Sequence record: PZ000615.1
Reading direction: 5' to 3' (one strand)
DNA length: 51,960 nt
Source of the DNA: a phage
Below the pieces are notes generated by a model, which saw only the letters and a list, made by a program, of their open reading frames with translations, made no database searches and had not been told where the DNA came from. The position numbers and the translations under genes were made by a program. Below, in pieces: positions 451 to 16,719 of this stretch. Every line of letters begins with the position of its first letter. Positions within the stretch are counted from its first letter, which is position 1.

Positions 451-2484
451 ATGACTATGAGTATTCAAAAGCAAATTGCCGCTCTTGATCCTGAGTACAT
501 GAAGAGGGTTAAGAGTCGATTCACGTTTGGCGATCTGGTTCCTTATGACTACCAGGTTGTCATGTACGGCGAGACGGCAAAGAGGATCGCCAATTACGAA
601 CATCCTTTCTACATCAAGGCGTCAGTGTCAGCAGGTAAGACCGTAGGTTTTGCCATGGTTGCTGCTCAATGCCAGGTCATGAATCTGCCTATGCTCATTC
701 TTGCTCGTCAGGCTGAGATTGTTCAGCAGGACAGCGAGGAACTTTCAAACTTTGGCGTGAAGAACTCCGTTTACTGCGCAGGGCTTAACACCAAGTCTGC
801 ATACTTCCCGATAGTAGTCGGATCTGAGGGTTCTGTTGCTAATGGCTTGGACAAGGCTCTTGCTGACTTTTATCCTATGGTTGTCGGCATTGATGAATGC
901 CATCAGGTAGACTGGGAGGACTTAGCTGAGGCCATTGAGAACAATGAATCAAGGGATCAGATGTCACGAGCGAAAGACAAGCCTTATCGCGTCAACGAGC
1001 ATCACGTGGCGGAGGATTACAAATTTCATGACTTCGATGTCGTCGAATATGGTACAGGGCGAGCACAGTACACAATCATCATCATGGAATTAATGCGTCG
1101 TTGCCGTGAGCGGTACGGTCGAGAGCTGAGAGTTTTCGGAATGACTGGATCAGAGTTTCGCGGCGTGGTTCCTATCCTGGTTGAAGATAAAAAGCATCGT
1201 GGTTTCTGGCGTGAGCAGGTCACTGACATCAACACATCTTACCTTGTTGATTTCGGCTCTGTTGTTCCGACAATATTTGGTGGCACTGACGGACTCAAGT
1301 ATGACCTTGATGAGTTCAAGGCATCCAGTCAGGATGGAACTGCTGATTTCGGCGCGAAAGAAATGAAAGCCATGGAGAAGAAAATTCATGAGTCAGCCAG
1401 CTTAACCAAACAGATCATGACCAAGGTTGCAGAAATGGCACAGACCAGGAACGCCGTACTGATAACGTGCGCGGGTCAGCGTCATTGTAAGGAGGCGGCT
1501 GAAGCGTTGCCACCTGGTAGCACTTACGCAATCATCACCGAAAAGACTAACGCCAAGAAGCGACAGCAGATCTTGGATGACGTAAGGGCGGGTAAAATAA
1601 AATACACCTTCCAGGTTATGGCTTTGACAACTGGCGTCAACGTTCCAAACTGGGACTTTAGCGTCATACTCCGCAAGATAGGGAGCTTGACACTCCTGAT
1701 CCAGTTGCTTGGGCGCGGGATGCGATTACTCAAAAAGCAACAGATTGAAATGGGTATGGTCAAAGAGGATCATCTCGTCTGGGACTTTGCCGGAACAATG
1801 GATGAACTCGGACAGCTTTACTTTGATCCGATTCTGGAGCAGTACCAATATCAGAGAAAAGGAGACCGCATCAAAGACCAGGAAAAATGCCCTATCTGTG
1901 GGACAATGAACAGTGGATTTGCTCGTCGCTGTATGCACCGAGACGAACACGGAAACCGTTGTGAGTATTTCTGGAAGTCTCAGATCTGCTCTGACATTGT
2001 CGACAAGCGAACCAACGAGATCATAAAGAAAGGTTGCGGAACCGAAAATGATGTGGTAGCAAGGGTATGCCGTTGCTGTGACGCTTCTCTAATCGATCCC
2101 AACGAGAAGCTATCCGGCAAGATGTACACGAAAAATGATTGGTGTGACGTTCTTGACTTCAAGGTCGGCATGACCAAGAGCCAAACCGGAATACTTTATC
2201 ATTACCGACTCAGGGACGCCGTAGGGGTTGAGTTTGACGCCGTGGAGAAGTTCTTCCCTGAGAGCGATAACAAGATCTGTAAAACGCTCTGGCGGTCAAA
2301 GGGGGTTACTCCTCACGTAGTCGGAAAGGACAACCGCAATTTACTCGGTCTGACAAAAAACGCTGTCAAGATTTTTAGCATGAAACACCTCATACTCTCA
2401 CCAATCCGAGTTACTCACCGGAAAAATGGGAAGGGTGAGGACATTATTAGCCGCAAAGACTTTGGAGGGGAAATTGATAACTGA
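451..2484 (+). CDS. SF2 (DEAD/DEAH-type) ATP-dependent helicase with C-terminal Cys-rich zinc-ribbon region
   Basis: Track ORF 403..2484; first ATG at 451; Walker A SAGKT, Walker B/DEAH-like GIDECHQ, C-terminal CPICG...RRC...RCCD cysteine clusters. Confidence 0.75.
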   Translation: MTMSIQKQIAALDPEYMKRVKSRFTFGDLVPYDYQVVMYGETAKRIANYEHPFYIKASVSAGKTVGFAMVAAQCQVMNLPMLILARQAEIVQQDSEELSNFGVKNSVYCAGLNTKSAYFPIVVGSEGSVANGLDKALADFYPMVVGIDECHQVDWEDLAEAIENNESRDQMSRAKDKPYRVNEHHVAEDYKFHDFDVVEYGTGRAQYTIIIMELMRRCRERYGRELRVFGMTGSEFRGVVPILVEDKKHRGFWREQVTDINTSYLVDFGSVVPTIFGGTDGLKYDLDEFKASSQDGTADFGAKEMKAMEKKIHESASLTKQIMTKVAEMAQTRNAVLITCAGQRHCKEAAEALPPGSTYAIITEKTNAKKRQQILDDVRAGKIKYTFQVMALTTGVNVPNWDFSVILRKIGSLTLLIQLLGRGMRLLKKQQIEMGMVKEDHLVWDFAGTMDELGQLYFDPILEQYQYQRKGDRIKDQEKCPICGTMNSGFARRCMHRDEHGNRCEYFWKSQICSDIVDKRTNEIIKKGCGTENDVVARVCRCCDASLIDPNEKLSGKMYTKNDWCDVLDFKVGMTKSQTGILYHYRLRDAVGVEFDAVEKFFPESDNKICKTLWRSKGVTPHVVGKDNRNLLGLTKNAVKIFSMKHLILSPIRVTHRKNGKGEDIISRKDFGGEIDN

Positions 2485-2902
2485 TAAAGGCGATTACCTT
2501 GAATATTACGAGCGCGATCCAAGCGACACCAGAAAGGAGGAGGCGCACCAAAACGATAGCGCCTCTTGGGTTAAGTATCACTATCCGGAAATAATTTTCT
2601 GGCACACGGTCAACGAGGGTAAGAAAACAATCACCCAGGCAGACCGAGATCAGAGAGCTGGATTATTGAAGGGGGTGAGCGATAACGTATTCCTGAATGG
2701 AGTTTGTTACAAATTCCCGTTTGGAGCCATTGAGCTTAAGCGCGTCAATAAGAGCGGAAAGGGGGCAGCGTCACCAGTCAGCGATGAACAGAAAGCATAT
2801 CTCAAGCGCGTTCGTTCTGCTGGAGGTTTCGCCGCCGTCGCTTACGGGTTCGAACAGTTCAAGCTGGCTTTCCTTGATATGATAGGGAAACAGCACGAAT
2901 AG
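2426..2902 (+). CDS. VRR-NUC-like (PD-(D/E)xK) nuclease
   Basis: Track ORF; motif region FWHTVNEG...GVSDNVFL...GAIELKRVNKSGKG...EQKAYL resembles VRR-NUC; start uncertain (59-nt overlap with helicase). Confidence 0.5.
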   Translation: MGRVRTLLAAKTLEGKLITDKGDYLEYYERDPSDTRKEEAHQNDSASWVKYHYPEIIFWHTVNEGKKTITQADRDQRAGLLKGVSDNVFLNGVCYKFPFGAIELKRVNKSGKGAASPVSDEQKAYLKRVRSAGGFAAVAYGFEQFKLAFLDMIGKQHE

Positions 2903-2933
2903 CTAAAACAGCCGGAAGGGAATCCGGTATTAT
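2889..2933 (+). promoter_or_regulatory. Promoter-like cassette (variant element)
   Basis: CAGCACGAATAGCTAAA variant; hairpin CCGGAAGGGAATCCGG in spacer; TATTAT 2928-2933; upstream of dam. Confidence 0.35.
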
Positions 2934-2960
2934 CATCTCAACTTAAACAGGAGATTGATT

Positions 2961-3695
2961 ATGAAAGACGTTGCAGACAAAGATACTCACGACGCTTTTG
3001 TCTCATTTGAGCAGATTGAGCGCGAAAACTTCATTACCAACGCGCTTGTTCCTGGGTGCGGTCATTATTCAGCAGTCAAGCCGGATACTTACTACCAGGT
3101 AACTGGCAACCGCTACGCCGGAAGCAAGACACCTGACATCGTTCGTGACCTTTGGGCTACAGATCCAGAAGTGATTGAGTTCATGGAGAAGCGTTTCGGC
3201 AAGTATGATCTTGACGCGGCGGCAAGCGAACAAAACGCGGTCTGTGAAAAGTTCTACGACGAAAAGACCGACTGCCTGAAACGCTGGTGGGGCAAGAACA
3301 AACACGTTTGGCTTAACCCTCCGTACTCACATCCGGACGTCTTTGTCAAAAAGGCAATTGAGCAGATGGAGCATGGAAACCAGATTGACATGCTGCTGCC
3401 TGGTGACAACTCAACCGCATGGTTTGCCGAAGCGCGTCGGAATGCTGCTGAGATTATCTGGATCGAGGGAGATATTGAAACCGACATCGACGGAACTGAG
3501 TACGCCCGAACCGGACGACTTTCTTTCATCTCGGCTCTCACCGGAAAGCCAGTTGACGGAAACAACAAAGGCTCTGTGATCTTTATCATGCGAGAGCTGA
3601 AAGAAGGTGAGAAACAGAAAACTCACTACATCCCAATTACTGAAATTTGCCCAGGCGTGAGCCGCAAGCGTGCTAAAAAACGGAGCGTAAAATAA
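2961..3695 (+). CDS. dam: DNA N6-adenine methyltransferase (phage Dam type)
   Basis: Track ORF 2955..3695 starts at TTG; ATG at 2961 preceded by CAGGAG; catalytic motif WLNPPYSH (NPPY). Confidence 0.8.
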   Translation: MKDVADKDTHDAFVSFEQIERENFITNALVPGCGHYSAVKPDTYYQVTGNRYAGSKTPDIVRDLWATDPEVIEFMEKRFGKYDLDAAASEQNAVCEKFYDEKTDCLKRWWGKNKHVWLNPPYSHPDVFVKKAIEQMEHGNQIDMLLPGDNSTAWFAEARRNAAEIIWIEGDIETDIDGTEYARTGRLSFISALTGKPVDGNNKGSVIFIMRELKEGEKQKTHYIPITEICPGVSRKRAKKRSVK

Positions 3696-3928
3696 TGAGT
3701 AACTTCAACATTAAATACCTTACAAAGTCTGAAAAGTGGGCTTTATATCGCGCTCTGGTTGTTCTGGTTCTTATTGAGTCTGGATATAACAAAGACCATT
3801 TCGAGCTTGCTGATTCTCTTGATATGTCATTTGAGGAGATCGAAAGCATCCCTTATGACCAGTGGAAAGCCTTGATCATGAAAGACCTGCACGAGATGAT
3901 CGCAGATTGTCCGGAGGACTTTGGCTAA
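3695..3928 (+). CDS. Hypothetical protein
   Basis: Track ORF; TAATG start/stop overlap with dam. Confidence 0.5.
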   Translation: MSNFNIKYLTKSEKWALYRALVVLVLIESGYNKDHFELADSLDMSFEEIESIPYDQWKALIMKDLHEMIADCPEDFG

Positions 3929-4170
3929 TGGATATTCGCGAGGGTAGAGCGGCAGTATGGGAGCACGCAAAGGAATGCGGGATTGATGAAGATATAGCAC
4001 GAATTGCTAAACATTTCGACATCAAAGAGATTAATATCTTCACTCCTGGCGACGGCGGCAAGCTTACATATTTAAACGAACGCCCTCGCAAATTTCACAA
4101 GATAGCGGTTGCAGCGAAATCAGAAAAAACGCTTGACCAATACCTTAAAGAGGCAAGAGGCAAGAAATGA
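3928..4170 (+). CDS. Hypothetical protein (contains an internal copy of the promoter element)
   Basis: ATG at 3928 overlapping upstream stop (TAATG); track ORF 3862..4170 has an upstream non-ATG extension. Confidence 0.4.
   Translation: MDIREGRAAVWEHAKECGIDEDIARIAKHFDIKEINIFTPGDGGKLTYLNERPRKFHKIAVAAKSEKTLDQYLKEARGKK
3993..4037 (+). promoter_or_regulatory. Promoter-like cassette located inside a coding region
   Basis: TATAGCACGAATTGCTAAA then TAATAT at 4032-4037 with the same 22-nt spacing; inside ORF 3928..4170. Confidence 0.3.
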
Positions 4171-4421
4171 ATTTACCAGGCTTGAACTTTGACGAAACAG
4201 TTTACTCCCTTACGTGGAGAGGCAATATCAAGTTCCGTGAGATTCCATTCTCTGACTGGTTGCCTCCCGATCACAAGGATGTCATTTGTTACGGAAACGG
4301 TCAGGTATTTGAGGCTTATTTTTCTCCTCTATCTGGTTTCATGGTTCCGTCAGAAAACTCCACGGCTCATTGTGCTTTTGAGCCATGCGAGCTTGATTAC
4401 TGGTTGAAAGAGGTGGAGTAA
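4167..4421 (+). CDS. Hypothetical protein
   Basis: Track ORF; ATGA overlap with upstream gene. Confidence 0.5.
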   Translation: MNLPGLNFDETVYSLTWRGNIKFREIPFSDWLPPDHKDVICYGNGQVFEAYFSPLSGFMVPSENSTAHCAFEPCELDYWLKEVE

Positions 4422-4501
4422 TGCGATACGCTTTGATCCCGTTGGCGACACTAATTGCAGTTGTCGCACTCTTTCAAACCATCATGATTTACAACTAAGG
4501 A
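4421..4501 (+). CDS. Small hydrophobic peptide (26 aa), possible membrane protein
   Basis: ATG at 4421 overlapping upstream stop; translation MRYALIPLATLIAVVALFQTIMIYN; below track length cutoff. Confidence 0.3.
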
Positions 4502-4507
4502 ATCACC

Positions 4508-5644
4508 ATGCAACAGAAGATTACAGACGAACAATTGATCGCTGAGCGCGAATCCGGCAAAACTCAGCGTCAGATCGCTCAAGAGTACGGAATGAACATC
4601 CGAACCATCGAGCAACGTTGCGCACGCCTTGCAAAGAAAGGCCATGGTCACGGAAACAAGCACGTGTCTGTTCACGTTCCAGAAGGTTTCGCCGTAAAGG
4701 GAACCTCCACCATGATTCGCGGCAACGGCGAGGAGGTTGTTCGTTGGGTTAAGACCGACCAGGACAAAGAAAAAATGGCGGCAATGATGGACGCTGCTAT
4801 CGAGGCTTTCTGTGAGGAAATCCCACGAGCAACTCCACAAGAAAACAAGCTTGATGGAAAGTTTGTTGAGGGTCAGCTAGCTCTATATCCGGTATTTGAT
4901 CTGCACATTGGCGCTATGGCTCATAAGCACGAATGCGGTGAAAACTACTCAACCGACATCTCTGAGAAAGTCCTTAAGGACTTCTTTGAATACGCTGTTG
5001 AGATTTCACCTCATGCAGAAAAGGCCGTTCTTTTAATCGGCGGTGACTTCTTGCACTCTGACGGATTGGACGCGGTGACACCTGCTAGCGGTCACGTTCT
5101 GGATCAGGACTCGCGCTACGCTAAGCTTGTTCACGTAGCTATCCGATCTGTTCGTCGTGCTGTTTCGAAAATGCTGGATAAGCACAATGAAGTTGAGATC
5201 CAGATTATCGAAGGGAACCACGACCAGGCCGGAATGATCTGGCTGCGCGCTTCAATGGCGGCATTCTATGAAGATGAGCCGCGAGTGAATGTCGACGTTA
5301 GCCCTATGATCCTACACCGGACAAAGTGGGGTAAAACGCTATTGGGTTATACTCACGGTCACACCATGAAGAAAGCCGAAACCCGACTCTCAGCCATGGC
5401 GACAGATTTCCGTGAAGAGTTCGGAACAAGCAAGTACATTTACACGCACTCCGGACACTGGCACCATCAGACAATCACTGAGCACAGCTTAGGCATTGAC
5501 GAGGTTCACGGTCAGCTCGGAGCTAAGGACGCATACGCAGCTCGCGGCGGCTGGCGCTCATATCGTCAGGCGGCTGTCATTGTCTACTCCAAAGAGTTTG
5601 GCGAAATCGGGCGCTTTGTGTATCGCCCAGAAATGAGCAAGTAA
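4508..5644 (+). CDS. Calcineurin-like metallophosphoesterase with N-terminal HTH domain
   Basis: AAGGA SD before ATG 4508; motifs DLHIG (DxH), GGDFLHSDG (GDxxD), EGNHDQ (GNHD/E), HSGHWHH (GHxH); N-terminal QRQIAQEYGMNIRTIEQR HTH-like. Confidence 0.65.
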   Translation: MQQKITDEQLIAERESGKTQRQIAQEYGMNIRTIEQRCARLAKKGHGHGNKHVSVHVPEGFAVKGTSTMIRGNGEEVVRWVKTDQDKEKMAAMMDAAIEAFCEEIPRATPQENKLDGKFVEGQLALYPVFDLHIGAMAHKHECGENYSTDISEKVLKDFFEYAVEISPHAEKAVLLIGGDFLHSDGLDAVTPASGHVLDQDSRYAKLVHVAIRSVRRAVSKMLDKHNEVEIQIIEGNHDQAGMIWLRASMAAFYEDEPRVNVDVSPMILHRTKWGKTLLGYTHGHTMKKAETRLSAMATDFREEFGTSKYIYTHSGHWHHQTITEHSLGIDEVHGQLGAKDAYAARGGWRSYRQAAVIVYSKEFGEIGRFVYRPEMSK

Positions 5645-5691
5645 AACCAACAAGGGGCGGCTTTCGCCCCTAACCATAAGGAATCACACCG

Positions 5692-6207
5692 ATGATTTTT
5701 GAGCCTCACTATGAAGCGCCTCGCGTCGTTATTTTTGACTATGACGGAACGCTATCCGATGGAACTCACCGTTTGCACCTGCTGCCAACGAAAGACCAAC
5801 ACTTAACTGAAACATGGATTCCGTTTAATGCGGCCTGTGTTTATGATTCTCCAATCCGTGACACAATTGACGTGATGAATGCAATGTATGACGCAGGATT
5901 TTACGTCATCATTCTGACTGGTCGAAGTGATCACGTTTACGATGAGTCAGTAAAATGGCTGAAAGATAACGGCGCTCGTTACCATCATATGGAGATGCGA
6001 AAGCAGACCGACAATCGCAGAGACACAATCATCAAAGAGGAATACTTGCGCGGCATCGGCCTTGAAAACATCGTTGCAGCCTGGGACGACAGCCCGAACG
6101 TTATTGAGCATTTCCGCAACCTTGGGATTACCGTTTACCAGGTTTTCGATTACGGCGACAAGCTTCACAGTCGCACAGACTTAAAATCTCACGGAGTAGA
6201 AAAATAA
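5692..6207 (+). CDS. HAD-superfamily phosphatase (nucleotidase / polynucleotide 3'-phosphatase-like)
   Basis: N-terminal VVIFDYDGTLSDG (DxDGT motif); AAGGA SD. Confidence 0.6.
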   Translation: MIFEPHYEAPRVVIFDYDGTLSDGTHRLHLLPTKDQHLTETWIPFNAACVYDSPIRDTIDVMNAMYDAGFYVIILTGRSDHVYDESVKWLKDNGARYHHMEMRKQTDNRRDTIIKEEYLRGIGLENIVAAWDDSPNVIEHFRNLGITVYQVFDYGDKLHSRTDLKSHGVEK

Positions 6208-6788
6208 TGATTATCATTTTGAACGCACCAGCCGGAGCCGGAAAAGACACCATTCAGCAAGCAATTGCGGAGCTGCATGAGGTGTCACAGCTCAGCTTTA
6301 AAAAGCCTATGTTCGCTATGGCTAATGCCATGCTTGGCGATCTGGGGTTCATGGAATTCATGGACGCCTACAACAACCGCGAGCGAAAAGAAAAGCCACT
6401 TGAATTGCTTCACGGCTCAAGCCCTCGGCAGTTCATGATCTGGCTGAGTGAGAGCGTTATTAAACCTCACTTTGGCGACAAGCATTTTGGTAATCTGCTT
6501 TATGACGATTACATTATGCACGAGAATGACGGCTACTATGTCGGAGTTGTCAGCGACGGCGGGTTTGAGAGTGAGACGATTGCTCTGATCGATACTGGAG
6601 TTCCGGTTCGTCTTGTTCGACTTCATCGTGACGGCTACTCGTTTGCCGGAGACTCACGCGATTATGTCAGTCTGCCGCTCTACGCTAATAGCCCTACGTA
6701 TGACTACCAAGAGTTTGACGTTCAGTTAACTGAAGGTTTGCCAGTTGTGGCGGCGCTGGATATTCTCTCAATGGTCGGGTTGAAATAG
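6207..6788 (+). CDS. P-loop kinase, deoxynucleoside monophosphate kinase-like
   Basis: N-terminal IIILNAPAGAGKDT (GxxxxGKD/T P-loop as in phage dNMP kinases); TAATG coupling to upstream gene. Confidence 0.55.
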   Translation: MIIILNAPAGAGKDTIQQAIAELHEVSQLSFKKPMFAMANAMLGDLGFMEFMDAYNNRERKEKPLELLHGSSPRQFMIWLSESVIKPHFGDKHFGNLLYDDYIMHENDGYYVGVVSDGGFESETIALIDTGVPVRLVRLHRDGYSFAGDSRDYVSLPLYANSPTYDYQEFDVQLTEGLPVVAALDILSMVGLK

Positions 6789-6828
6789 CACGAATTGCTA
6801 AAACTTGCGCAACGGAATGCGCTATTAT
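6784..6828 (+). promoter_or_regulatory. Promoter-like cassette
   Basis: AATAGCACGAATTGCTAAA 6784-6802 (contains stop TAG of upstream gene); hairpin GCGCA-ACGGAA-TGCGC; TATTAT 6823-6828. Confidence 0.4.
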
Positions 6829-6867
6829 CTTTTCAACGAAACGAAACACCCAAACAGGAGAAACACC

Positions 6868-6972
6868 ATGAAAAACGCAATCAACTACATCTTATCTACT
6901 GCTGGCGGCGTCCTGGTTGTTGGCTTTATGATTTGGGTTGTAACCTTAGCATCTAACTTTAACGGGTTCTAA
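6868..6972 (+). CDS. Small membrane peptide (34 aa)
   Basis: GGAGAAACACC-ATG; translation MKNAINYILSTAGGVLVVGFMIWVVTLASNFNGF with one hydrophobic helix; below track cutoff. Confidence 0.35.
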   Translation: MKNAINYILSTAGGVLVVGFMIWVVTLASNFNGF

Positions 6973-6973
6973 A

Positions 6974-7174
6974 ATGTCAAAATCAATCGCTGTAAAATGC
7001 ATTCGCAACGATTCTAAAACACTGCCTTTCGCTGTTAATGGCGTATATAACGCGGAGGATATCGGCGGTCAGTATAAGATCAGCTATATGACAGGCGCTT
7101 ATACTTCTGACTTTATTCACGCGCCGTTAAATGGTCACTATCTGGAATTTATTCCGGTGGACATTCAGAAGTAA
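6974..7174 (+). CDS. Hypothetical protein
   Basis: Track ORF, followed by hairpin terminator. Confidence 0.45.
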   Translation: MSKSIAVKCIRNDSKTLPFAVNGVYNAEDIGGQYKISYMTGAYTSDFIHAPLNGHYLEFIPVDIQK

Positions 7175-7193
7175 AATCAACACTTTCCATTGC

Positions 7194-7217
7194 GGGAGCC
7201 TTTAGGCTCCCTTTTTG
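7194..7217 (+). terminator. Rho-independent terminator
   Basis: GGGAGCC-TTTA-GGCTCCC followed by TTTTT. Confidence 0.6.
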
Positions 7218-7286
7218 CGTTGTTTCATTCCTTCCTCCATTCGGTTATTATTGAACCAACTTTCCCAACTAACCAAGGCTAACGCT

Positions 7287-7502
7287 ATGAGAGACTTTAT
7301 TAACTCTATCGCTGGCACTGGCGGCGGCGTTACCCTTGGCGGCGCGGCGGCTGGTCAGCTTATCATTGCCGGAATAGGCTTAATCATCATGACAGCTTTC
7401 GGAGCCTGGGGTGCATATCTGCGCTGGAAGGACTCAAAAGCACTACACAAGGCACTAGCCAACGGCGACATCAAAGAGGCCGTCAGGATCAGGAGTCAGT
7501 GA
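7287..7502 (+). CDS. Putative holin/pinholin (71 aa)
   Basis: ATG at 7287 inside track ORF 7215..7502; Gly/Ala-rich hydrophobic segment [33 protein letters not shown] then charged C-tail; immediately upstream of endolysin. Confidence 0.5.
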
Positions 7503-7503
7503 T

Positions 7504-7986
7504 ATGAGCAACGTTTTAAAATCCACTCTGACGGGCGTTATGCTCGTCACTGCTGGTCTACTATCTCAGCTTGAGGGTACGCATTACACGCCTTACATCG
7601 ACATCGCTGGCGTCCCAACCGTCTGTGAAGGGATTACTGGTAAGGATGTAATCTGGGGCAAGAAGTACACGCGGCGCGAGTGCGATAAGCTGTTAGAGAA
7701 GCATATCGCTGTTGCTGCTAAGGCAGTTGACGGAGCCGTTAAGGCTGAAATCCCCGACACCATGAGAGCGGCTCTGTATAGCTTCACATTCAACGCTGGT
7801 CAAGGGGCTTTCCGTTCGTCCACCCTGTTACGTTTAACGAACCAGGGGCGCTTATGGGAGGCTTGCGGCGAGCTGAATAAGTGGGTTTACTTCTACAACC
7901 CAAAAACCGGAAAGAAAGAGGTTGCGAAAGGCCTGAAAAACCGACGCGCCGTTGAATATCAATATTGCGTTAAGGATCTGAAATGA
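7504..7986 (+). CDS. SAR-type endolysin (lysozyme, GH24-like)
   Basis: N-terminal weakly hydrophobic signal-anchor-release segment [15 protein letters not shown] followed by lysozyme motif [16 protein letters not shown]; AGGAG SD. Confidence 0.7.
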
Positions 7987-8390
7987 AAAAGACAATCATC
8001 GCTTGTTGCGTATCTCTGGCTTTAATCGTATCTGGTTGCTCGGCTACGTCTGCTCTGACTGGTCTAATCGGCAGCAAGCCGGATGTCACAGCACAGGCCG
8101 GAGCCGAAAACACAAAACAGACTCTCGGACTGAACAGCAAGGTTGACCAATCCAGCAAGTCGGACAACACGATTAAGGATTCAGCCGTCGGCTCTGTTGA
8201 TAGCTCCAACGGCAAACGAGTTAACGCCTCAAGCATCACGGCGGATATGATCAAGGCAGACAAGATTGAGATCAGGAATAATGAGGCTTACGTGTGGGAA
8301 ATGGAGGCAGGGATGTTTGTCGTTGGCCTAATGGCGGGCGCTCTCGCAGTTACCATCTACGCGACACGCAGAAAGAACAAAGGAGCCTAA
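7983..8390 (+). CDS. Unimolecular spanin (lipoprotein signal + C-terminal TMD)
   Basis: N-terminal lipobox LIVSGC, C-terminal [24 protein letters not shown] overlap with endolysin; followed by terminator. Confidence 0.65.
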
Positions 8391-8404
8391 CGGCTCCTTT
8401 TTTT
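8382..8404 (+). terminator. Rho-independent terminator after spanin gene
   Basis: GGAGCC-TAAC-GGCTCC followed by TTTTTTT. Confidence 0.6.
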
Positions 8405-8565
8405 ATTCGTACAACTTGACGTGAAGGATACAAACCCCATCCTCATCATTAAGACCATGCTCAAAGTGACCGCTAGCCCTCATGCTGGTCGTCAACATTG
8501 ACAGCAGGGCGCAATTCAAACCCTCCCCGCTTATCCGGTTCACAGCCACACACTCAACGATTGAG

Positions 8566-8952
8566 TCAATTACTGTTTGAGCTTCCACGTATGGATCTGG
8601 CTCTTTCAATTTCGTGCCTCCTGAATAGATATTCGTCATCAAGCTTTCCGATGTTCATCATCTCTTTCATGTAAAGGCTCTCGCTTGCTTCCAGTGAATG
8701 CAGCTCAAAGTCAAACGGCCTGCTCTCTTTGTTCTTTACCCAAGCCTTTCCGCCCGACATATCCAGGTAGCCAAGCGTGCAAAGGCGCGGAATGAACTCA
8801 CGACCGACACAGGCGGCGAACTGCTTAGGAGTAACTCCGGCGCTCCTGGCTAATCGCTCACACTCGCGATGACCGAACACAAATGTTGATAACTCCTGGC
8901 GGGTAAATTCCCGCCGTGACTCTGCGAACCGATACAGATCAAGAATGAACAT
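8566..8952 (-). CDS. Hypothetical protein
   Basis: Track ORF; adjacent to stop of 526-aa gene; overlapped at 3' end by alternative-frame ORF 8403..8642. Confidence 0.4.
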   Translation of the reverse strand: MFILDLYRFAESRREFTRQELSTFVFGHRECERLARSAGVTPKQFAACVGREFIPRLCTLGYLDMSGGKAWVKNKESRPFDFELHSLEASESLYMKEMMNIGKLDDEYLFRRHEIERARSIRGSSNSN

Positions 8953-8954
8953 GA

Positions 8955-10535
8955 TTACCCCAGTAAGCGCGGGTTAACGTAAACGTCATCACCAATCAGG
9001 CAGACGTAACCTAATTCCTCAAGCTTTGGCAGCAGGTGATCACGAATGCGCTTTGTGACTCCAGACTGACCAAAGAAAGGTTTGATCTTGCGTACACCCT
9101 CATAGATTGAGCGGAACTTGATCACGCCTTTAGCGTTCTTGCCACGCTTGACGATGAAGTCAACGAGAACCCTCATCTCAGCATCGTCACCAGCATGACC
9201 AGCAGAGTTAGCTGATGAGAGATAAGTTTTGCTCAGCTCATAGAACATCGCAACAGCCTCTTGCATCGTGTCAAGGTCAACCGTCTTTGACTTCTGAGGG
9301 TTTGAGTTCTCACTCGACCAATTCCGGATCACGTGGATAACCGACGCAAGGCGAATCGCCTGTTTGTCAAACTTACCCATCGCACCGCGCAGCATCGTGT
9401 GAGAATACTTCCCACCATCCGCCAAGTGTGGCTCCATCTCCTGGCGTGCTCGGTTGAGATACTTCATCGCAGCCGCTCCCACCTTGAGCTTAATATCGCT
9501 CTCACTCATGATTTCGTGGATCAGCTTGTAGTATTTGGCGACAAGCTCTGAATCAATCGGGGTGTAAGTGCTTTCGCCTTTCTCATCGACGAACTTACGA
9601 CGACCCAAGTAAGACTCCTCACGAACCAGCAAGAAACGCTCCGATACACCGATACCACGCGAACCAGCCGCCATGATACCTTCTATCGTTTCGTCCTGAG
9701 CGATAACCGCAATCGCCCCCATAGCTACAAAGCTCATGTTGTTGTCAGCATTCGCACGAGCGATGGATACGTGACCGCTATCCCAGGCTTTAAGCACAAG
9801 TTCACTGTTCGTCTTGCGGCTCGCGTCCTGGTATGTCATGCCGAGCAATGAGTTGATACTCGTTGCCTCATCCGATATCACCGAGAAGTTGCCTTGTCGG
9901 TTGTTGATTCGAGCCAAGCCCTCCGGCGTGGTGTCGGATACAGGAAACACGATGTCACACATCTTTTCGAGTTTCTCCTCCAGATCCTCAAGCTCCTCGT
10001 AGAGGGATGCCATATCAGCTTTAGACTTCTCCCCCTTGAGTTCGGTCTTACACGCTGAGATCTTAGCCATTAAGCGTTTGCGCTCTTTCTTGCGCAGCTC
10101 GTTAAGGCGGTCAACCTCTGCGATCATTGGTTTGATTGCCATTGAGTTAATGGCTGATTTACCTGTCGATGGTGGCTGACTGGTTACGACGTAAAGCGCC
10201 GTTGGCTGATCTGTCCCGTGGTAGTCTACAGTGAATCGACCAAGCATAGCAGCAGACACGCACGCAAGAAAATGCATGTAAGCCGATGACTCTGGGAACT
10301 GAACAGAACGCGCCGCGTTTGCCGAAAGCTTTCCGACGATATCCAGATCGTTACCGAGAGAGATCACAGGATATTTGTCATTGCCGCCGTCAACGTCTTT
10401 AACCTCCGTCCAAAACGAGGACGAATGACGATACCCGTTAGCCTTTATTGCAACGCGCAGAGGTGAGATCCCCTCATTTTCTGCGATCACAATAATCTGC
10501 TGTGGCGTCATGGTCTGTTGCATATGGTCAAACAT
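8955..10535 (-). CDS. Large hypothetical protein with P-loop-like motif and coiled-coil segment; possibly replication-associated (DUF3987-like by recollection only)
   Basis: ATG with AAGGAG SD; PSTGKSA P-loop-like, SVISDEAT Walker-B-like, Glu/Lys-rich coiled coil ELEDLEEKLEK. Confidence 0.55.
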   Translation of the reverse strand: MFDHMQQTMTPQQIIVIAENEGISPLRVAIKANGYRHSSSFWTEVKDVDGGNDKYPVISLGNDLDIVGKLSANAARSVQFPESSAYMHFLACVSAAMLGRFTVDYHGTDQPTALYVVTSQPPSTGKSAINSMAIKPMIAEVDRLNELRKKERKRLMAKISACKTELKGEKSKADMASLYEELEDLEEKLEKMCDIVFPVSDTTPEGLARINNRQGNFSVISDEATSINSLLGMTYQDASRKTNSELVLKAWDSGHVSIARANADNNMSFVAMGAIAVIAQDETIEGIMAAGSRGIGVSERFLLVREESYLGRRKFVDEKGESTYTPIDSELVAKYYKLIHEIMSESDIKLKVGAAAMKYLNRARQEMEPHLADGGKYSHTMLRGAMGKFDKQAIRLASVIHVIRNWSSENSNPQKSKTVDLDTMQEAVAMFYELSKTYLSSANSAGHAGDDAEMRVLVDFIVKRGKNAKGVIKFRSIYEGVRKIKPFFGQSGVTKRIRDHLLPKLEELGYVCLIGDDVYVNPRLLG

Positions 10536-10610
10536 CTTTTCTCCTTAGTGGCGGTGAATAGTACACCGCCGATCATAAAACACTATCAGTCAAAAAGCCA
10601 GTTGGGGCGA

Positions 10611-11027
10611 TTACAAATATTTCGCTTCAAAAGTTGTTCCGTCAGCAATGCTAAAACCTACATCCTCGCGGTACAGGTTCCAGGGGCAACCGTCCTCATC
10701 AAAGATCAGACCAGCCACACCGCCAAGCGCTCGACCGGAATCCACCTGGTAACGCTTGCCAACCTTAAATGATTTCTTCATTGGGTTTTTGTGATCAAGC
10801 GACATGCACTTGAGGGTTTTGGTTTTCAGCTCAACGAACGTTGCAGCAACGACGCCATTACTTGAGATGAAGATTTCACCACTCACGCCAACCGACAGGA
10901 CAATCTTTTCCTTGCCCTTGCCAACGGTCACATTACCCTCGTCATCAACCTTTGCCTTTACCATATGGTTAGCGTTAAAAGCTTTGGTCAGTGACATTGT
11001 GCATTTCAGTTTGATTGATTTAGACAT
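10611..11027 (-). CDS. Hypothetical protein
   Basis: Track ORF. Confidence 0.5.
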   Translation of the reverse strand: MSKSIKLKCTMSLTKAFNANHMVKAKVDDEGNVTVGKGKEKIVLSVGVSGEIFISSNGVVAATFVELKTKTLKCMSLDHKNPMKKSFKVGKRYQVDSGRALGGVAGLIFDEDGCPWNLYREDVGFSIADGTTFEAKYL

Positions 11028-11038
11028 TTCTATGTTCC

Positions 11039-11200
11039 TTATGCAAAGTTTTTGAATTTACGAGCGCGGCGCTCCGCTATGATTCGATCCGACACATAGT
11101 GATCAACTCGGCTATCATTGAACTTTGTCACGATATCATCAACCACAAAGATAGCAAGCGGGAGGATAACGGAGATTGCCATGATGATTAAGATGATCAT
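11039..11200 (-). CDS. Small membrane protein (53 aa)
   Basis: Minus-strand ATG at 11200; translation MIILIIMAISVILPLAIFVVDDIVTKFNDS... with N-terminal TM helix; below track cutoff. Confidence 0.35.
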   Translation of the reverse strand: MIILIIMAISVILPLAIFVVDDIVTKFNDSRVDHYVSDRIIAERRARKFKNFA

Positions 11201-11236
11201 TTGTCGTTCCTTTGTGCGTTTCGTTTCGATGGAGCT

Positions 11237-11281
11237 AATATAACAAAACCCGCCGGAGCGGGTTTATCAAAAAGTGCTATT
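11237..11281 (-). promoter_or_regulatory. Promoter-like cassette (minus orientation) overlapping terminator hairpin
   Basis: Minus strand AATAGCACTTTTTGATAAA, hairpin CCCGCTCCGGCGGG in spacer, TATATT 22 nt after TTGATA; upstream of small membrane ORF. Confidence 0.35.
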
Positions 11282-11960
11282 TTCGATTAGCCTGGAAAAC
11301 TGCACGAGCGAAACCGCGAGGTGTGAGTGACCGTAACTGCTTGGTCTTTGATGACTTGCCTCCGAGGAACTTCCATCCCCAGAAGAACCAGACACCCTCA
11401 TCTTTAGGCAGTTCCATCTTAACTGGCTCCTTGAACCCGTTACCGCACCAGATACAGGTTTTCTTTGTGTACCCATCTCGCAACGGCATTTTAGGATGCC
11501 AGGAACCCTCATCAGCTCCTACGTAATATCCGAAATCGCGAGGGTGGAAATAAAAGTTCGGCTTGCCTAACTTGTCCTCGTTCGACATCTTCCCTACAGG
11601 ATTCTCAATCATCCATGGAATATCAAGTTCCTGGCCTATGTTCTTAACCACTTTCGCACACTCAAGAGCGTAAGCCATTTCATCCTCCTCGCGGAAGTGC
11701 TTAGCGCCGGAATGAGCAAACAGCGTGCAATCAGGGAACCCAAAGATGATGTCAGGGCGCGGAATGCCAAGCAGATCACACTTGATAAGAAAATCCTTAT
11801 CGATCCACATATTGACGTAACGAACCAGAGGGTGATTCATCTTCACGGCGTACTCACCATGATTTCCAGAGTCGGCGTTGAAGCAATACACCGTGTGACC
11901 ATGCTCAGCCCAAGGCAACCCCATAATGCCGGATCCGTCAAAAAGCGACCATACAATCAT
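11277..11960 (-). CDS. Compact DNA cytosine-C5 methyltransferase-like protein
   Basis: Motif I SLFDGSG (FxGxG), motif IV GFPDCTLFAHSG (catalytic Cys), motif VI WMIENPVG (ENV); only 227 aa; stop codon TAG lies inside promoter element copy. Confidence 0.55.
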   Translation of the reverse strand: MIVWSLFDGSGIMGLPWAEHGHTVYCFNADSGNHGEYAVKMNHPLVRYVNMWIDKDFLIKCDLLGIPRPDIIFGFPDCTLFAHSGAKHFREEDEMAYALECAKVVKNIGQELDIPWMIENPVGKMSNEDKLGKPNFYFHPRDFGYYVGADEGSWHPKMPLRDGYTKKTCIWCGNGFKEPVKMELPKDEGVWFFWGWKFLGGKSSKTKQLRSLTPRGFARAVFQANRK

Positions 11961-11969
11961 CTCACCACC

Positions 11970-12206
11970 TCACCAAAAAGGAACACATTCTTTGCAAGCG
12001 CCCGTCAACCTGCACTCGTCGTTACAATACGTCATGCCGTCATCGGCAACCATCGTCGGAACTACAGCTCCGCTCTCTGCGATCACATCCATATCACCAA
12101 GAGCGTCATCAAGCGTGATCTCTTGCGTTGCTACCTTCTCAGCCCACTCCGGATCTAATCCAGCCTTGCGAGCTTCATAATAACGGAATCTCTCTGAACG
12201 GTTCAT
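11970..12206 (-). CDS. Hypothetical protein
   Basis: Track ORF. Confidence 0.45.
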   Translation of the reverse strand: MNRSERFRYYEARKAGLDPEWAEKVATQEITLDDALGDMDVIAESGAVVPTMVADDGMTYCNDECRLTGACKECVPFW

Positions 12207-12526
12207 TTTTTATTCGCCTCTCTTAATTTTGCCGCGCATGATTTGCAGCACGTCTTGCCCCATCCGCGAGCAAGGTCTGAATTCCTTACCGGATATACCT
12301 TATCGCAACCTGGAGCCTCGCATTTCTTAAGCTTTCCAGCAGTGCGCTTTTTAAACTCATCAACCTGATTTGATTGCTCGGCCTTGCGCCAAAACTGTTG
12401 GATTGTTGCGATTTGCTCCCCGTCCTCATTAACCAAAATAAGGACTGATTTTGATTCGCTGGCGATCACATCGCAATGATGGGAGTCGCCATTTATTTCA
12501 ATCAGAACGCGATCACCAGCTTTCAT
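12203..12526 (-). CDS. Hypothetical protein with C-terminal Cys cluster (zinc-ribbon-like)
   Basis: Track ORF; C-terminal CEAPGC...CCKSC. Confidence 0.45.
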   Translation of the reverse strand: MKAGDRVLIEINGDSHHCDVIASESKSVLILVNEDGEQIATIQQFWRKAEQSNQVDEFKKRTAGKLKKCEAPGCDKVYPVRNSDLARGWGKTCCKSCAAKLREANKK

Positions 12527-12756
12527 TATTTCACCTCGGAAATGATTGGGAGCATTTCATTAACCAAACGGATAGCTGACTCAATGCCAACGCGCTTAAT
12601 TCCCGTTTCGTTATTCTTGCACAAAATAACGCTACCGATAGTTGAGCGGGTAATTACCAGGCGCTTAACGTTGTGGCCTTTGCTCGTGCGAATATCAACG
12701 GAGCCGTTAACAGCCACTTTATTCATAATTTCGGTCACGCTAAATTTGTTGTTCAT
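12526..12756 (-). CDS. Hypothetical protein
   Basis: Track ORF. Confidence 0.45.
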   Translation of the reverse strand: MNNKFSVTEIMNKVAVNGSVDIRTSKGHNVKRLVITRSTIGSVILCKNNETGIKRVGIESAIRLVNEMLPIISEVK

Positions 12757-12789
12757 TTCATTACCTTACTGTTTTGTTGGATTGAGTAA

Positions 12790-12836
12790 AGCTTAACGCC
12801 TTTCTCGTTATTTGTCTTTAGCAATTTGTGCTATTT
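12790..12836 (-). promoter_or_regulatory. Promoter element copy (minus orientation), weak -10
   Basis: Minus strand AATAGCACAAATTGCTAAA; hexamer at the expected position is TTAAGC (poor -10). Confidence 0.25.
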
Positions 12837-13194
12837 AATCGCGGGTAGTCTTGCCGTCGAAAGCTCTGAATTTAAAGTTCACAGTCGAGTTATAATGCGC
12901 TCGTGAATATCCGTCTGGGAAGTTAAAACCAGGCTCAATCTCACCGACGAAACATATAAAGTCACCGTTGTGATTGCTCAGATTAATACCACCATCAGCC
13001 AGGCTTAATTTAATCAAGTTGGCATTGTCTGCTGCCTTATAACCCTGAGGAAAGAATCGATCACACGCCGCTATAATCTCAGCTTTCTGCAACTCCAATA
13101 TCTCAGAGGTTGCTCTCTTTACGGCGTCAGTTACAGATCTCACAGGTTCAACCGGAGCGTAATATCGGGAGATGCTTACGTTTACATTTTTCAT
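12835..13194 (-). CDS. Hypothetical protein
   Basis: Track ORF. Confidence 0.45.
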   Translation of the reverse strand: MKNVNVSISRYYAPVEPVRSVTDAVKRATSEILELQKAEIIAACDRFFPQGYKAADNANLIKLSLADGGINLSNHNGDFICFVGEIEPGFNFPDGYSRAHYNSTVNFKFRAFDGKTTRD

Positions 13195-13430
13195 TCAACC
13201 ACCTCAAATGTTGCAACGCCGAGAATTGCCAGGCCGCGAGGCCAGCGAGTTAGAGCTATCCATCCGGAGCCGTGTTTATGCTCGCGATCAGCTCCAGTGA
13301 TAACGAACTCATTCGGGACTGTTTTGCCGTTAATAACCAAATCGGCAGCTTCGTACACCGAACCCTTTTTGAATGGAGTCAAGACCTTTTTGTCAGACGA
13401 CTCAATTACGTTTGAGCATTTTACTTTCAC
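13191..13430 (-). CDS. Hypothetical protein
   Basis: Track ORF, overlaps neighbours by 4 nt. Confidence 0.45.
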   Translation of the reverse strand: MKVKCSNVIESSDKKVLTPFKKGSVYEAADLVINGKTVPNEFVITGADREHKHGSGWIALTRWPRGLAILGVATFEVVE

Positions 13431-13678
13431 AGTTTTCGCCCCTCGTCAATAAAGCATTCCAGAAATACGCTCTTATCTTCCAAGTCGAGCGATGAGTGAT
13501 TCAGCCACTCAATCACAGTGCCGAGCTGAACATTGTCAGCGTAAGCCTGACGCCCTTCATTGCAGAGGTCAACCGAGTTAACAACCGGAGCCTCGACGGT
13601 GATTGTGTCGGCGTGAACTTCCCAGGCTGATCCAAGGATGCAAGCTGTTGCGATGATGATTGCAGTGATGCGTTTCAT
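13427..13678 (-). CDS. Small secreted/periplasmic protein (signal peptide)
   Basis: N-terminal MKRITAIIIATACILGSAWEVHA signal-peptide-like; first gene after a promoter element copy. Confidence 0.5.
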   Translation of the reverse strand: MKRITAIIIATACILGSAWEVHADTITVEAPVVNSVDLCNEGRQAYADNVQLGTVIEWLNHSSLDLEDKSVFLECFIDEGRKL

Positions 13679-13707
13679 GATGCGTTCTCCTCTGTTTCGT
13701 TGAGATA

Positions 13708-13752
13708 ACTATACCAAAGCCAGCCCCAGGAGTTTTAGCAATTCGTGCTATC
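13708..13752 (-). promoter_or_regulatory. Promoter-like cassette (minus orientation)
   Basis: Minus strand GATAGCACGAATTGCTAAA then TATAGT after 22 nt; upstream of secreted-protein gene. Confidence 0.4.
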
Positions 13753-13810
13753 TGAAAAGGCGGCGCGGAACATCCGCCCTTAATGTTTTTGACCAGTCAG
13801 AGCGTCGACG

Positions 13811-13969
13811 TTACTTTGCGTCATGCTCCTGTACCTCTGCGTAATAGTTAATCTCGTGATCGATTTCATGCTCTCGCTTTCGGGCGTCTGCCTCATCAAG
13901 CCAAACGCTATCAATCCAAGAGTCACCGCCTGACCAATTCTCATTCTTTGTTACGATCCAGACTTTCAT
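13811..13969 (-). CDS. Small acidic protein (52 aa)
   Basis: ATGA start/stop overlap with upstream gene 13966..14382; translation MKVWIVTKNENWSGGDSWIDSVWLDEADARKREHEIDHEINYYAEVQEHDAK; below track cutoff. Confidence 0.3.
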   Translation of the reverse strand: MKVWIVTKNENWSGGDSWIDSVWLDEADARKREHEIDHEINYYAEVQEHDAK

Positions 13970-14382
13970 GACAGTTCCTCCGGATGATACATTTTCTCGC
14001 GACGAATCTTGACATCAGCAATTCGATCCATTGTCGATTCAATGTGATGAACGGATGAGATCGCACGTTGCCATAACTTAAGATGACGATCCCATACGAA
14101 CGACATCCCAGAAATGACAGCAAAAGGATAACCGCGCTCTGAATGGTACAGCACGCCAGGGTATTCAATTTTCATCATGCTCTCAATGCGCTTGATCGCG
14201 TAGTTGATGAAGCAAGCCTGGCCGTTAGCGTTTCCGGTCGTGTAGGTATTGCGCCACACGATTTCCCAGTCCCGATATGCAACAACAACCTCAGTACGCC
14301 CGATTGAGTTGTGGTTACGCTGCACGCTAAAGCCAGCCTCACGAGCGCGTTTCAGTGCATCCTCAAGGTGATAGTGTCTCAT
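13966..14382 (-). CDS. Hypothetical protein
   Basis: Track ORF. Confidence 0.5.
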   Translation of the reverse strand: MRHYHLEDALKRAREAGFSVQRNHNSIGRTEVVVAYRDWEIVWRNTYTTGNANGQACFINYAIKRIESMMKIEYPGVLYHSERGYPFAVISGMSFVWDRHLKLWQRAISSVHHIESTMDRIADVKIRREKMYHPEELS

Positions 14383-14386
14383 TATC

Positions 14387-14650
14387 TCAGTCCTCTACTG
14401 TGAATTTGATCGGCTCTTTGCCGTCTGCTTTACGCTGCTTGTTAACCAGTGATTCGAACTTACTCATGCACTCCTTCAGATCTGTAAAGGTTGACGCCGT
14501 ACCCATAACCCGATACGACTCAACGTTTTTGCCGCGAACATAGTTGATAACCTTTTTGCAGATCTTGAACTTGTCACCCTTTGCGCTTGACTCCTGAAAC
14601 ACTGCGATTGTGGTTGAGCCATGCTTGAATGCTTTAGTGATGAATGCCAT
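14387..14650 (-). CDS. Hypothetical protein (first gene of leftward early operon)
   Basis: Track ORF; AGGAGG SD; preceded by promoter element copy. Confidence 0.5.
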   Translation of the reverse strand: MAFITKAFKHGSTTIAVFQESSAKGDKFKICKKVINYVRGKNVESYRVMGTASTFTDLKECMSKFESLVNKQRKADGKEPIKFTVED

Positions 14651-14674
14651 GAGAGCCTCCTGTTTCGATGAGAT

Positions 14675-15445: not shown

Positions 15446-15458
15446 AAAAACAACCCAA

Positions 15459-16712: not shown

Positions 16713-16719
16713 GGGTGAT

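Follow-up and report, generated by a model that had tools for sequence, protein, structure and literature searches.

Organization of the locus

The DNA analyzed here (record PZ000615.1; hereafter the window, 51,960 nucleotides in full) is a nearly complete genome of a T1-like, Eclunavirus-like phage of the Drexlerviridae, with 86% nucleotide identity to Enterobacter phage Ec_L1. Its VRR-NUC nuclease gene is flanked by genes for a RadD-like SF2 helicase and, downstream, for the Dam methyltransferase, which are homologues of T1 gp22 and gp20, respectively (Table 1). The window also encodes an Erf annealing protein, a RecE-like PDDEXK exonuclease and an SSB homologue, all at 48.0–50.4 kb; the SSB assignment derives solely from the Ec_L1 annotation, and a Pfam search with the product of that gene gave no match. 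A Cro-like protein is encoded on the minus strand at 2–355.

Table 1. Coordinates of genes and sequence features at the locus (window positions)
Feature	Position	Strand	Details
SF2 helicase gene, RadD-like, T1 gp22 homologue	451–2484	+	677 aa; Pfam ResIII and Helicase_C, phrog_16
N-terminal extension in the earlier gene model	2426–2473	+	Read as helicase 3' coding sequence only, outside the nuclease gene
Shine-Dalgarno GGAGGGG	2464–2470	+	Inside the helicase gene; ends 3 nt before TTG 2474
VRR-NUC nuclease gene, T1 gp21 homologue	2474–2902	+	TTG start, 142 aa plus TAG stop; PF08774, phrog_824
Overlap of nuclease start and helicase stop	2474–2484	+	11 nt; sequence reading, comparison across genera
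Catalytic core codons	within 2537–2791	+	E22 2537–2539, D70 2681–2683, E87 2732–2734, K89 2738–2740, Q106 2789–2791
Degenerate cassette copy	2890–2933	+	20-mer ACAGCACGAATAGCTAAAAC at 2890–2909, holding the nuclease TAG 2900–2902
Cassette spacer hairpin CCGGA-AGGGAA-TCCGG	2912–2927	+	Called on the minus strand by the promoter/hairpin scan
-10-like TATTAT	2928–2933	+	27 nt before dam ATG 2961
Dam N6-adenine methyltransferase gene, T1 gp20 homologue	2961–3695	+	Pfam PF05869, E 2.5e-60; annotations of relatives

The nuclease gene starts at a TTG codon

An earlier note on this DNA described a 158-aa product read from an ATG at 2426 to the stop at 2902 on the plus strand, with a 59-nt overlap with the helicase gene. 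An in-frame stop at 2381–2383 leaves the frame open from 2384 onward, and 2426 is indeed the sole in-frame ATG ahead of the conserved domain, with GTG 2435, TTG 2462 and TTG 2474 as further candidates. The arithmetic of a 59-nt overlap also holds, given that the helicase stop codon is TGA 2482–2484. Comparison with relatives, however, places the start at TTG 2474, 48 nt downstream of the ATG, and the overlap with the helicase gene is thus 11 nt. All five close relatives have ACG in place of the ATG at 2426, a difference that traces to a synonymous change (AAT/AAC) in an Asn codon of the helicase, and the sequence upstream of the ATG (CCGGAAAA) lacks a Shine-Dalgarno element. Between 2426 and 2473, third codon positions of the helicase account for 8 of the 10 columns that vary among close relatives; the 16 codons added by the ATG model vary at 10 of 16 amino acid positions, whereas the overlapping helicase frame varies at only 1 of 16. 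By this comparison, the 48 nt after the ATG evolve under helicase-frame constraint only. From 2485 to 2899, 88 of 120 variable columns are third codon positions of the nuclease frame. Homologues are 137–149 aa long and begin at, or a few codons from, a conserved N-terminus, ITDK(G/V)DY, and Pfam and tblastn matches from outside the closest clade start at least 16–18 residues into the longer ORF. The ATG model is therefore very improbable, and we read both the ATG and the 59-nt overlap as accidents of one genome.

The annotated starts of the relatives are the TTG equivalent to 2474, and five relatives retain the Shine-Dalgarno element as GGAGG[G/C/A]G. In the seven Drexlerviridae genera sampled, the start codon of the homologue is ATG or GTG and lies no more than a few codons from the ITDK(G/V)DY N-terminus, which is conserved across genera. 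A start at GTG 2435, a codon kept in the relatives, was considered and rejected: it has no properly spaced Shine-Dalgarno element, the residues gained are unconstrained, and its conservation is forced by conserved G-E-D codons of the helicase. The expectation that translation of the nuclease begins upstream of the helicase stop codon still holds for the revised start, which lies 11 nt before it. In other genera the two genes overlap by up to 11 nt or are separated by up to 2 nt, and in the window they are probably translationally coupled through the 11-nt overlap.

The overlap could alternatively be a site of programmed frameshifting at which some ribosomes produce a helicase–nuclease fusion. 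An open stretch of 33 codons in the nuclease frame lies within the helicase 3' end, A-rich runs occur close by (CGGAAAAATGGG), and VRR-NUC domains are joined to larger proteins elsewhere (phrog_93). Nevertheless, moving from the helicase frame into the nuclease frame takes a +1 shift, so that the A-runs, being slippery sequences of the -1 type, would not give access to it. The variable junction has no conserved slippery site, each genus has a conserved Shine-Dalgarno element and start codon, and no constraint on the nuclease frame is seen ahead of the start; we consider a frameshift fusion extremely unlikely.

The product is a VRR-NUC protein of the T1 gp21 group

The earlier assignment of the product to the VRR-NUC branch of PD-(D/E)xK nucleases is backed by profile, predicted fold and conserved residues. 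The match to PF08774 (E 8.3e-07; 29.5 bits against a curated cut-off of 23.8) spans profile positions 2–115 of 116, that to phrog_824 has an E value of 8.4e-45, and the stretch GAIELKRVNKSGKG...EQKAYL singled out previously is present in the ORF. All 120 homologues listed carry PF08774, with a single protein of 219 aa outside the length range given above. A search of NCBIfam with the nuclease returned no matching model. In a 66-sequence alignment, E22, D70, E87, K89 and Q106 are invariant; in the structural model these core residues are distributed over helix 1, strand 2 (or immediately ahead of it), strand 3 and helix 2, and they supply the catalytic acids, the ExK and the helix-2 glutamine specific to the VRR-NUC family.

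The AlphaFold model (pLDDT 86.6, pTM 0.83) has the topology alpha-beta-(short helix)-beta-beta-alpha-beta-alpha. The best Foldseek match is 4qbl (probability 1.0; TM 0.63/0.72), followed by 4qbn, 4qbo and FAN1. A PDB sequence search with the 142-aa protein found only a chance match to ketol-acid reductoisomerase, and a search with the 66-sequence profile found nothing, so fold comparison was needed to tie the protein to solved VRR-Nuc structures. The tie to characterized enzymes comes from Pfam and the predicted fold, at about 20% identity. The insertion between beta1 and beta2 (residues 41–70) is modeled with a pLDDT of only 64–70; the model places a single helix in this segment, at residues 53–61, and not the two-helix insertion of FAN1.

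Both phrog_824 and the position directly 3' of a gp22-like helicase gene place the protein in the T1 gp21 group. Members of this family (Rtp54, Shelby gp56, tunus gp77 and Ec_L1 gp02, all in phrog_824) are 55–94% identical to the window's protein, equal in length and likewise situated between a gp22-like helicase and Dam. Rtp54 is annotated as 'similar to gp21 of phage T1', and many members as 'VRR-NUC domain-containing protein' or 'endonuclease'; some relatives were already labeled VRR-NUC on HHpred or Phyre matches to 4QBL (including PMC7868345), and in the closest relatives, Ec_L1 and Phc, the gene is labeled 'hypothetical protein'. This is an ordinary T1-like phage gene that has been annotated before. 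The Eclunavirus clade, which includes the window, differs from the rest of the family in its TTG start (ATG or GTG elsewhere), its 11-nt helicase overlap and a gene end three codons later than in the other T1 gp21 homologues.

A helicase precedes the nuclease in other phages

The helicase matches the NCBIfam RadD model (NF053632) with an E value of 7e-54 and 183 bits, far under the equivalog cut-off of 720, so we call it RadD-like SF2 and not RadD. E. coli RadD (YejH), which acts on recombination intermediates (PMC8887467, PMC10238739), resembles it in being an SF2 protein with a Cys-rich C-terminal part. Neighboring helicases in relatives are annotated as similar to T1 gp22. That helicase and VRR-NUC genes form a recurring pair, as had been proposed, is borne out: the order helicase then VRR-NUC is conserved in all seven Drexlerviridae genera sampled and in four phages beyond the family (Dibbivirus PSKM, Skatevirus seszw, Klebsiella phage BUCT610 and Yersinia phage vB_YenM_22), in three of which the pair is followed by exonuclease or recombinase genes, two of these with an SSB gene as well.

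Comparison with characterized VRR-Nuc proteins and proposed function

Our results are most consistent with a model in which the T1 gp21 homologue at 2474–2902 is a dimeric, Mg2+-dependent, structure-selective VRR-NUC endonuclease that resolves recombination and replication branches, a reading to which we give a probability of roughly 0.7. Our analysis shows the gene and where it starts, along with family membership, fold, residue conservation and synteny; dimerization, the substrate and the function in vivo are inferred. The closest structural counterpart is psNUC, a stand-alone VRR-Nuc protein of Psychrobacter (PDB 4QBL; PMC4103454), described by Pennell et al. in 2014 and only about 18–21% identical to the phage protein; its dimer and junction cleavage were shown by experiment, whereas the phage protein is known from sequence and a model. 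The phage protein additionally has a conserved N-terminal beta-hairpin (residues 2–11), a region in which D4, Y8, E10 and Y12 are invariant. A short helix between beta1 and beta2 occurs in a subset of VRR-Nuc proteins, including psNUC (PMC4103454). The phage-encoded stNUC and saNUC (PDB 4QBN and 4QBO) are minimal, at about 92 aa, with neither the N-terminal hairpin nor the beta1–beta2 insertion. Archaeal Hjc/Hje and bacterial RecU resolvases belong to other families and lack the VRR-Nuc glutamine that hydrogen-bonds the catalytic lysine (PMC4103454).

In this model, TTG 2474 would be translated from the GGAGGGG ribosome-binding site within the last codons of the helicase gene. Like the single-domain VRR-Nuc proteins of solved structure, which are dimers that cleave four-way junctions symmetrically (PMC4103454), the product would most likely form a homodimer. 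E22, D70 and E87 would bind Mg2+, with Q106 positioning K89, and the enzyme may introduce paired nicks across Holliday junctions and also act on nicked three-way junctions and forks. Branches arising from the phage's Erf, RecE-like exonuclease and SSB homologue, and from replication, would thereby be cleared, leaving concatemers packageable.

T1 degrades host DNA, and to our knowledge no gene has been assigned to this activity; a literature search on the subject found nothing. This background counts toward a reading in which the same fold does another job, as a flap, fork or non-specific nuclease rather than a canonical Holliday-junction resolvase, whether in host DNA degradation or in the processing of stalled forks or 5' flaps. 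VRR-Nuc domains do serve as non-resolvases in FAN1 and in the T6SS TseV effectors. Symmetric, ligatable cleavage of four-way junctions is known only for psNUC, stNUC and saNUC, two of the three characterized VRR-Nuc proteins are weak, partly non-specific nucleases in vitro (the non-specific activity being that of stNUC and saNUC), and stNUC also cleaves nicked three-way junctions and 3' flaps (PMC4103454). Against another job, the nearest fold is that of psNUC, which behaves as a canonical resolvase, and the conserved neighbors are helicase and recombination genes rather than host-takeover genes. The FAN1 VRR-Nuc domain belongs to a monomeric, multi-domain 5'-flap nuclease in which a two-helix insertion, with helices of about 10 and 18 residues, obstructs the dimer interface (PMC4103454); the phage model has one short helix of 9 residues there. 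On balance, we judge a role of this kind unlikely. A weapon or counter-defense nuclease akin to the toxic T6SS effectors is far less plausible still. VRR-Nuc domains act as antibacterial toxins in TseV effectors (PMC9635880), but the phage protein carries neither a PAAR nor a delivery domain, no immunity gene lies next to its gene, and the latter occupies a strictly conserved core-genome site across genera, between the helicase gene and Dam or recombination genes.

A more ambitious extension of the branch-resolving model, which we regard as doubtful, is that helicase and nuclease form a physically and translationally coupled branch-migration and resolution machine. If so, the pair would be the phage equivalent of RuvAB-RuvC or archaeal Hjm/Hel308-Hjc, a cassette conserved in T1-like phages and in several unrelated lineages of siphoviruses and myoviruses, and the weak TTG together with the 11-nt overlap would keep the nuclease scarce relative to the helicase.

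The main value of our analysis is a correction: the gene is best annotated as 2474–2902, with a TTG start and a 142-aa product, a VRR-NUC nuclease and putative Holliday-junction resolvase. T1-like phages thereby gain a candidate branch-resolving enzyme alongside their Erf/RecE-type recombination genes. We found no biochemical or genetic data in the literature for T1 gp21 or its close homologues, and study of the group by biochemistry and knockout would fill a real but small gap.

A repeated cassette upstream of dam

The earlier note had placed the nuclease stop codon within a dam promoter cassette. The stop does lie inside a repeat, in the right arm of the cassette in the Eclunavirus clade and in the left arm in other T1 gp21 homologues; the promoter, however, had been inferred, and a sigma-70 consensus scan of 2300–3100 returned no promoter, only the hairpin at 2912–2927. 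The cassette occurs 13 times in the window and 15 times in phage Ec_L1, and in its layout A-TAGCA-CGAAT-TGCTA-AAAC is followed, after a spacer of exactly 18 nt, by a -10-like hexamer. The distance between TTGCTA/TAGCTA and that hexamer is 22 nt, as compared with the canonical sigma-70 spacing of 16–18 nt. Because the -10 element recurs in this fixed geometry in 352 instances, the cassette remains likely, as judged from its sequence, to be a non-canonical or activator-dependent promoter. A first pattern proposed for the cassette, CCGG-N8-CCGGTATTAT, was discarded because its 7 matches, only one of them exact, did not significantly exceed the 2.1 expected; the true repeat is the 20-mer located 5' of this pattern. 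Literature searches found nothing on the cassette sequence and nothing relevant on promoter motifs of Drexlerviridae. The palindromic cassette is conserved to the base in divergent genera, and it is probably more interesting than the nuclease gene.

Identity and proposed role of the nuclease

The analysis establishes the gene model, family, predicted fold, catalytic residues and synteny of the phage nuclease; by inference as to dimer, substrate and in vivo role, the protein is most likely an endonuclease that needs Mg2+, works as a homodimer and is selective for DNA structure. Its membership of the VRR-NUC family, noticed earlier from the sequence, is confirmed by a profile search in which Pfam VRR_NUC (PF08774) matched over nearly its whole length with 29.5 bits against a curated cut-off of 23.8 (E = 8.3e-07). 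In PHROGs, the match is to phrog_824 (E = 8e-45), whose function is unassigned. Sequence-only searches of the PDB with the nuclease returned nothing relevant, and the link to the solved VRR-Nuc structures therefore rests on the Pfam match and the predicted fold.

An AlphaFold model made from a 66-sequence alignment of homologues (mean pLDDT 86.6, pTM 0.83) opens with a hairpin, followed by helix 22–36, strand 41–43 and a short helix, 53–61, and continues with strands 71–74 and 83–89, helix 104–115, strand 119–124 and helix 126–141. The residues invariant in the alignment include D4, Y8, E10 and Y12, which form the confidently modelled N-terminal beta-hairpin, as well as E22 in helix 1, D70 immediately before strand 2, E87-x-K89 in strand 3 and Q106 in helix 2. 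VRR-Nuc proteins have a conserved Gln that forms a hydrogen bond with the catalytic Lys (PMC4103454). The best Foldseek matches in the PDB were six chains of 4QBL (probability 1.0, TM 0.63/0.72), followed by 4QBN, 4QBO and FAN1. Pennell et al. 2014 (PMC4103454) described 4QBL, 4QBN and 4QBO as psNUC, stNUC and saNUC, respectively. According to that study, single-domain VRR-Nuc proteins dimerize and make symmetrical cuts in four-way junctions, and FAN1 stays monomeric, its dimer interface being blocked by an insertion of two helices. The modelled phage protein and psNUC both have one short helix between beta1 and beta2.

In vivo, the nuclease would resolve Holliday junctions and related branches left by Erf/RecE-type recombination and by replication, ahead of packaging. 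Coupled translation, initiated at a weak TTG codon, would keep its synthesis in step with that of the helicase. The main rival is that the enzyme has another substrate preference, for flaps, forks or bulk DNA. Many relatives already carry the labels 'VRR-NUC domain-containing protein', 'endonuclease' or 'putative Holliday junction resolvase'. The record of phage Shelby cites an HHpred match to a Psychrobacter resolvase, and the genome papers for phages HCF1 and 2019SD1 make the same match. With tblastn, the gene was found in 1,122 phage records. It is an ordinary, widely annotated phage gene, and the family call is correct.

Gene model and start codon

The earlier note had the nuclease begin at its only in-frame ATG, inside the helicase gene. 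The frame is indeed open over 2426–2902 (158 aa from that ATG), with an upstream stop at 2381–2383 and candidate starts at ATG 2426, GTG 2435, TTG 2462 and TTG 2474; the helicase gene terminates in TGA 2482–2484. ATG 2426 is rejected on four lines of evidence. The triplet is ACG in Enterobacter phage Ec_L1, phage Phc and three metagenomic relatives, where the overlapping helicase Asn codon is synonymous (AAT in the window, AAC in these five). In an ungapped comparison of five sequences, the window and four relatives, 8 of the 10 variable columns in 2426–2473 are third positions of helicase codons (second positions in the nuclease frame); read in the helicase frame, 1 of 16 amino acids differs, and read in the nuclease frame, 10 of 16 do. 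Beyond the helicase stop, 88 of the 120 columns that vary in these sequences are at nuclease-frame third positions, and only 19 of 138 nuclease residues vary. The annotated start in Ec_L1 and Phc is the TTG equivalent to 2474, which gene callers also picked in the metagenomic contigs; GGAGGGG precedes it at 2464–2470, and one relative has a GTG start after GGAGGAG. The homologues of seven other Drexlerviridae genera use an ATG or GTG start, placed at a conserved N-terminus or a few codons before it (for example, MITDKGDYLE, MAITDKGDYLE, MNITDKVDYIE and VITDKGDYLE; in DTL, MEFRVKITDKVDY); the counterpart of this N-terminus in the window is the stretch of residues that follows TTG 2474.

Homologues are 137–149 aa long in 119 of the 120 listed database entries. 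Because of the start-codon evidence, these lengths and the conserved N-terminal residues, we assign the gene to 2474–2902 (142 aa), which reduces the previously overstated helicase overlap to 11 nt. From genus to genus, this junction varies between 11 nt of overlap and a gap of 2 nt. The conserved property is that the genes closely adjoin, not a set extent of overlap, which suggests that the two are co-transcribed and translationally coupled. One homologue (P0105, on a contig of 1,334 nt) has 219 aa instead of about 140, and its extra length may come from a wrongly called start or from fusion to the 3' end of the helicase.

Genomic context

Over the first 6 kb, the window matches Ec_L1 and Phc at full length with 86% and 85.5% nucleotide identity, respectively; both are classified in Drexlerviridae, genus Eclunavirus (T1-like siphoviruses). 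As judged from its length (51,960 bp versus 51,894 bp for Ec_L1) and the same starting point, the window appears to be in effect the complete genome of an Ec_L1-related phage, and the Ec_L1 gene map could therefore be used as a guide. The two are collinear over the 6 kb compared, yet only about 86% identical there. The usual criterion for species is 95%, by which the window probably represents a new Eclunavirus species. Three predicted genes lack a Pfam match at E <= 0.001: 4508–5644 (DNA repair exonuclease/phosphoesterase in relatives), 11280–11960 on the minus strand (DNA methyltransferase) and the SSB homologue.

The nuclease gene is flanked by an SF2 helicase gene upstream and a Dam methyltransferase gene (PF05869, E = 2.5e-60) downstream; the nuclease homologue Rtp54 is annotated as similar to T1 gp21, and the helicase and Dam on either side of it as similar to gp22 and gp20. 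The suggestion that helicase and VRR-NUC form a recurring pair holds beyond Drexlerviridae, with the same order in Dibbivirus PSKM, Skatevirus seszw, Klebsiella phage BUCT610 and Yersinia phage vB_YenM_22. In seszw and BUCT610, a small hypothetical gene separates the pair from downstream exonuclease, recombinase and SSB genes; the pair is followed by a recombination protein and exonuclease in vB_YenM_22, and by exonuclease VIII in PSKM. The partner helicase is classed by sequence as RadD-like: it matches the NCBIfam RadD model with E = 7e-54, yet scores far under the equivalog cut-off. RadD of E. coli works on recombination intermediates (PMC8887467, PMC10238739). The C-terminal third of the phage helicase has a Cys-rich, zinc-finger-like region (CPICG...CxxxxxxxxxC...CRCC).

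Features of the window
Feature	Position	Strand	Basis
Helicase gene	451–2484	+	ResIII + Helicase_C; phrog_16
Nuclease gene	2474–2902	+	TTG start, relatives' annotation, conserved N-terminus, codon-position variation
SSB homologue gene	48065–48502	-	Ec_L1 annotation only; no Pfam match
Erf protein gene	48550–49218	-	Window scan
RecE-like PDDEXK exonuclease gene	49279–50388	-	Window scan
Cassette copies	2890, 3994, 6785, 15460, 15830, 19102, 20038, 21155, 21982, 22792	+	
Cassette copies	12834, 13751, 14719	-	

The repeated cassette

As the earlier note held, the nuclease stop codon lies inside a repeated element upstream of dam. There are 13 copies in the window and 15 in Ec_L1; those of the window all lie within 2890–22792, oriented with the genes they precede, and none is in the structural-gene half of the genome. 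Each cassette (about 45 nt) consists of A-TAGCA-CGAAT-TGCTA-AAAC, exactly 18 nt and a -10-like hexamer, with TAGCA-N5-TGCTA forming a perfect 5-bp inverted repeat. At least 120 stretches of T1-like contigs (IMG/VR) contain the exact 20-mer, and the hexamer, at a fixed offset in 352 distinct instances, is mostly TATAGT, CATAAT, CATACT, TATAAT or TATTAT. The element is promoter-like. A sigma-70 consensus scan of 2300–3100 called no promoter, and the distances within the element are at odds with a canonical -35 hexamer. With the palindrome centred about 30 nt upstream of the hexamer, the geometry may be that of an activator site overlapping the -35 region; as it departs from canonical sigma-70, a dimeric regulator may bind there, its site centred near -41.5. 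A literature search found no publication with the cassette sequence.

The nuclease gene ends at the left-arm TAG in seven other genera. Members of the Eclunavirus clade have CAG at that place, and their stop is a TAG that arose in the right arm (TTGCTA to TAGCTA); this shift lengthens the nuclease by Gln-His-Glu and degrades both half-sites of the dam-proximal cassette. The left-arm TAG is often the stop of the upstream gene, as for the ORFs ending at 6788 and 22795 (sites 6786–6788 and 22793–22795), so that the ends of reading frames interlock with regulatory sites.

In several cassettes, the spacer just upstream of the hexamer holds a GC hairpin (2912–2927, 6808–6822, 15852–15865 and 22814–22827; also in relatives). 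Its stems differ between copies and phages (CCGGA/TCCGG, GCGCA/TGCGC, CCCGGC/GCCGGG) in a way that looks compensatory, and it could be a terminator for the upstream unit nested in the next promoter. A second conserved motif, YCCCAT/CTCAWC-GAAAC(GAAAC), lies about 5–20 nt downstream of the hexamers (for example, 6835–6850 and 15880–15895), appears in the consensus of the 352 instances (CCCCATnnAAAC) and could represent a conserved leader at the 5' end of the transcripts. One copy (3994–4013, hexamer TAATAT), kept in Ec_L1, lies inside a small coding ORF (3919/3928–4170) and may be an internal promoter.
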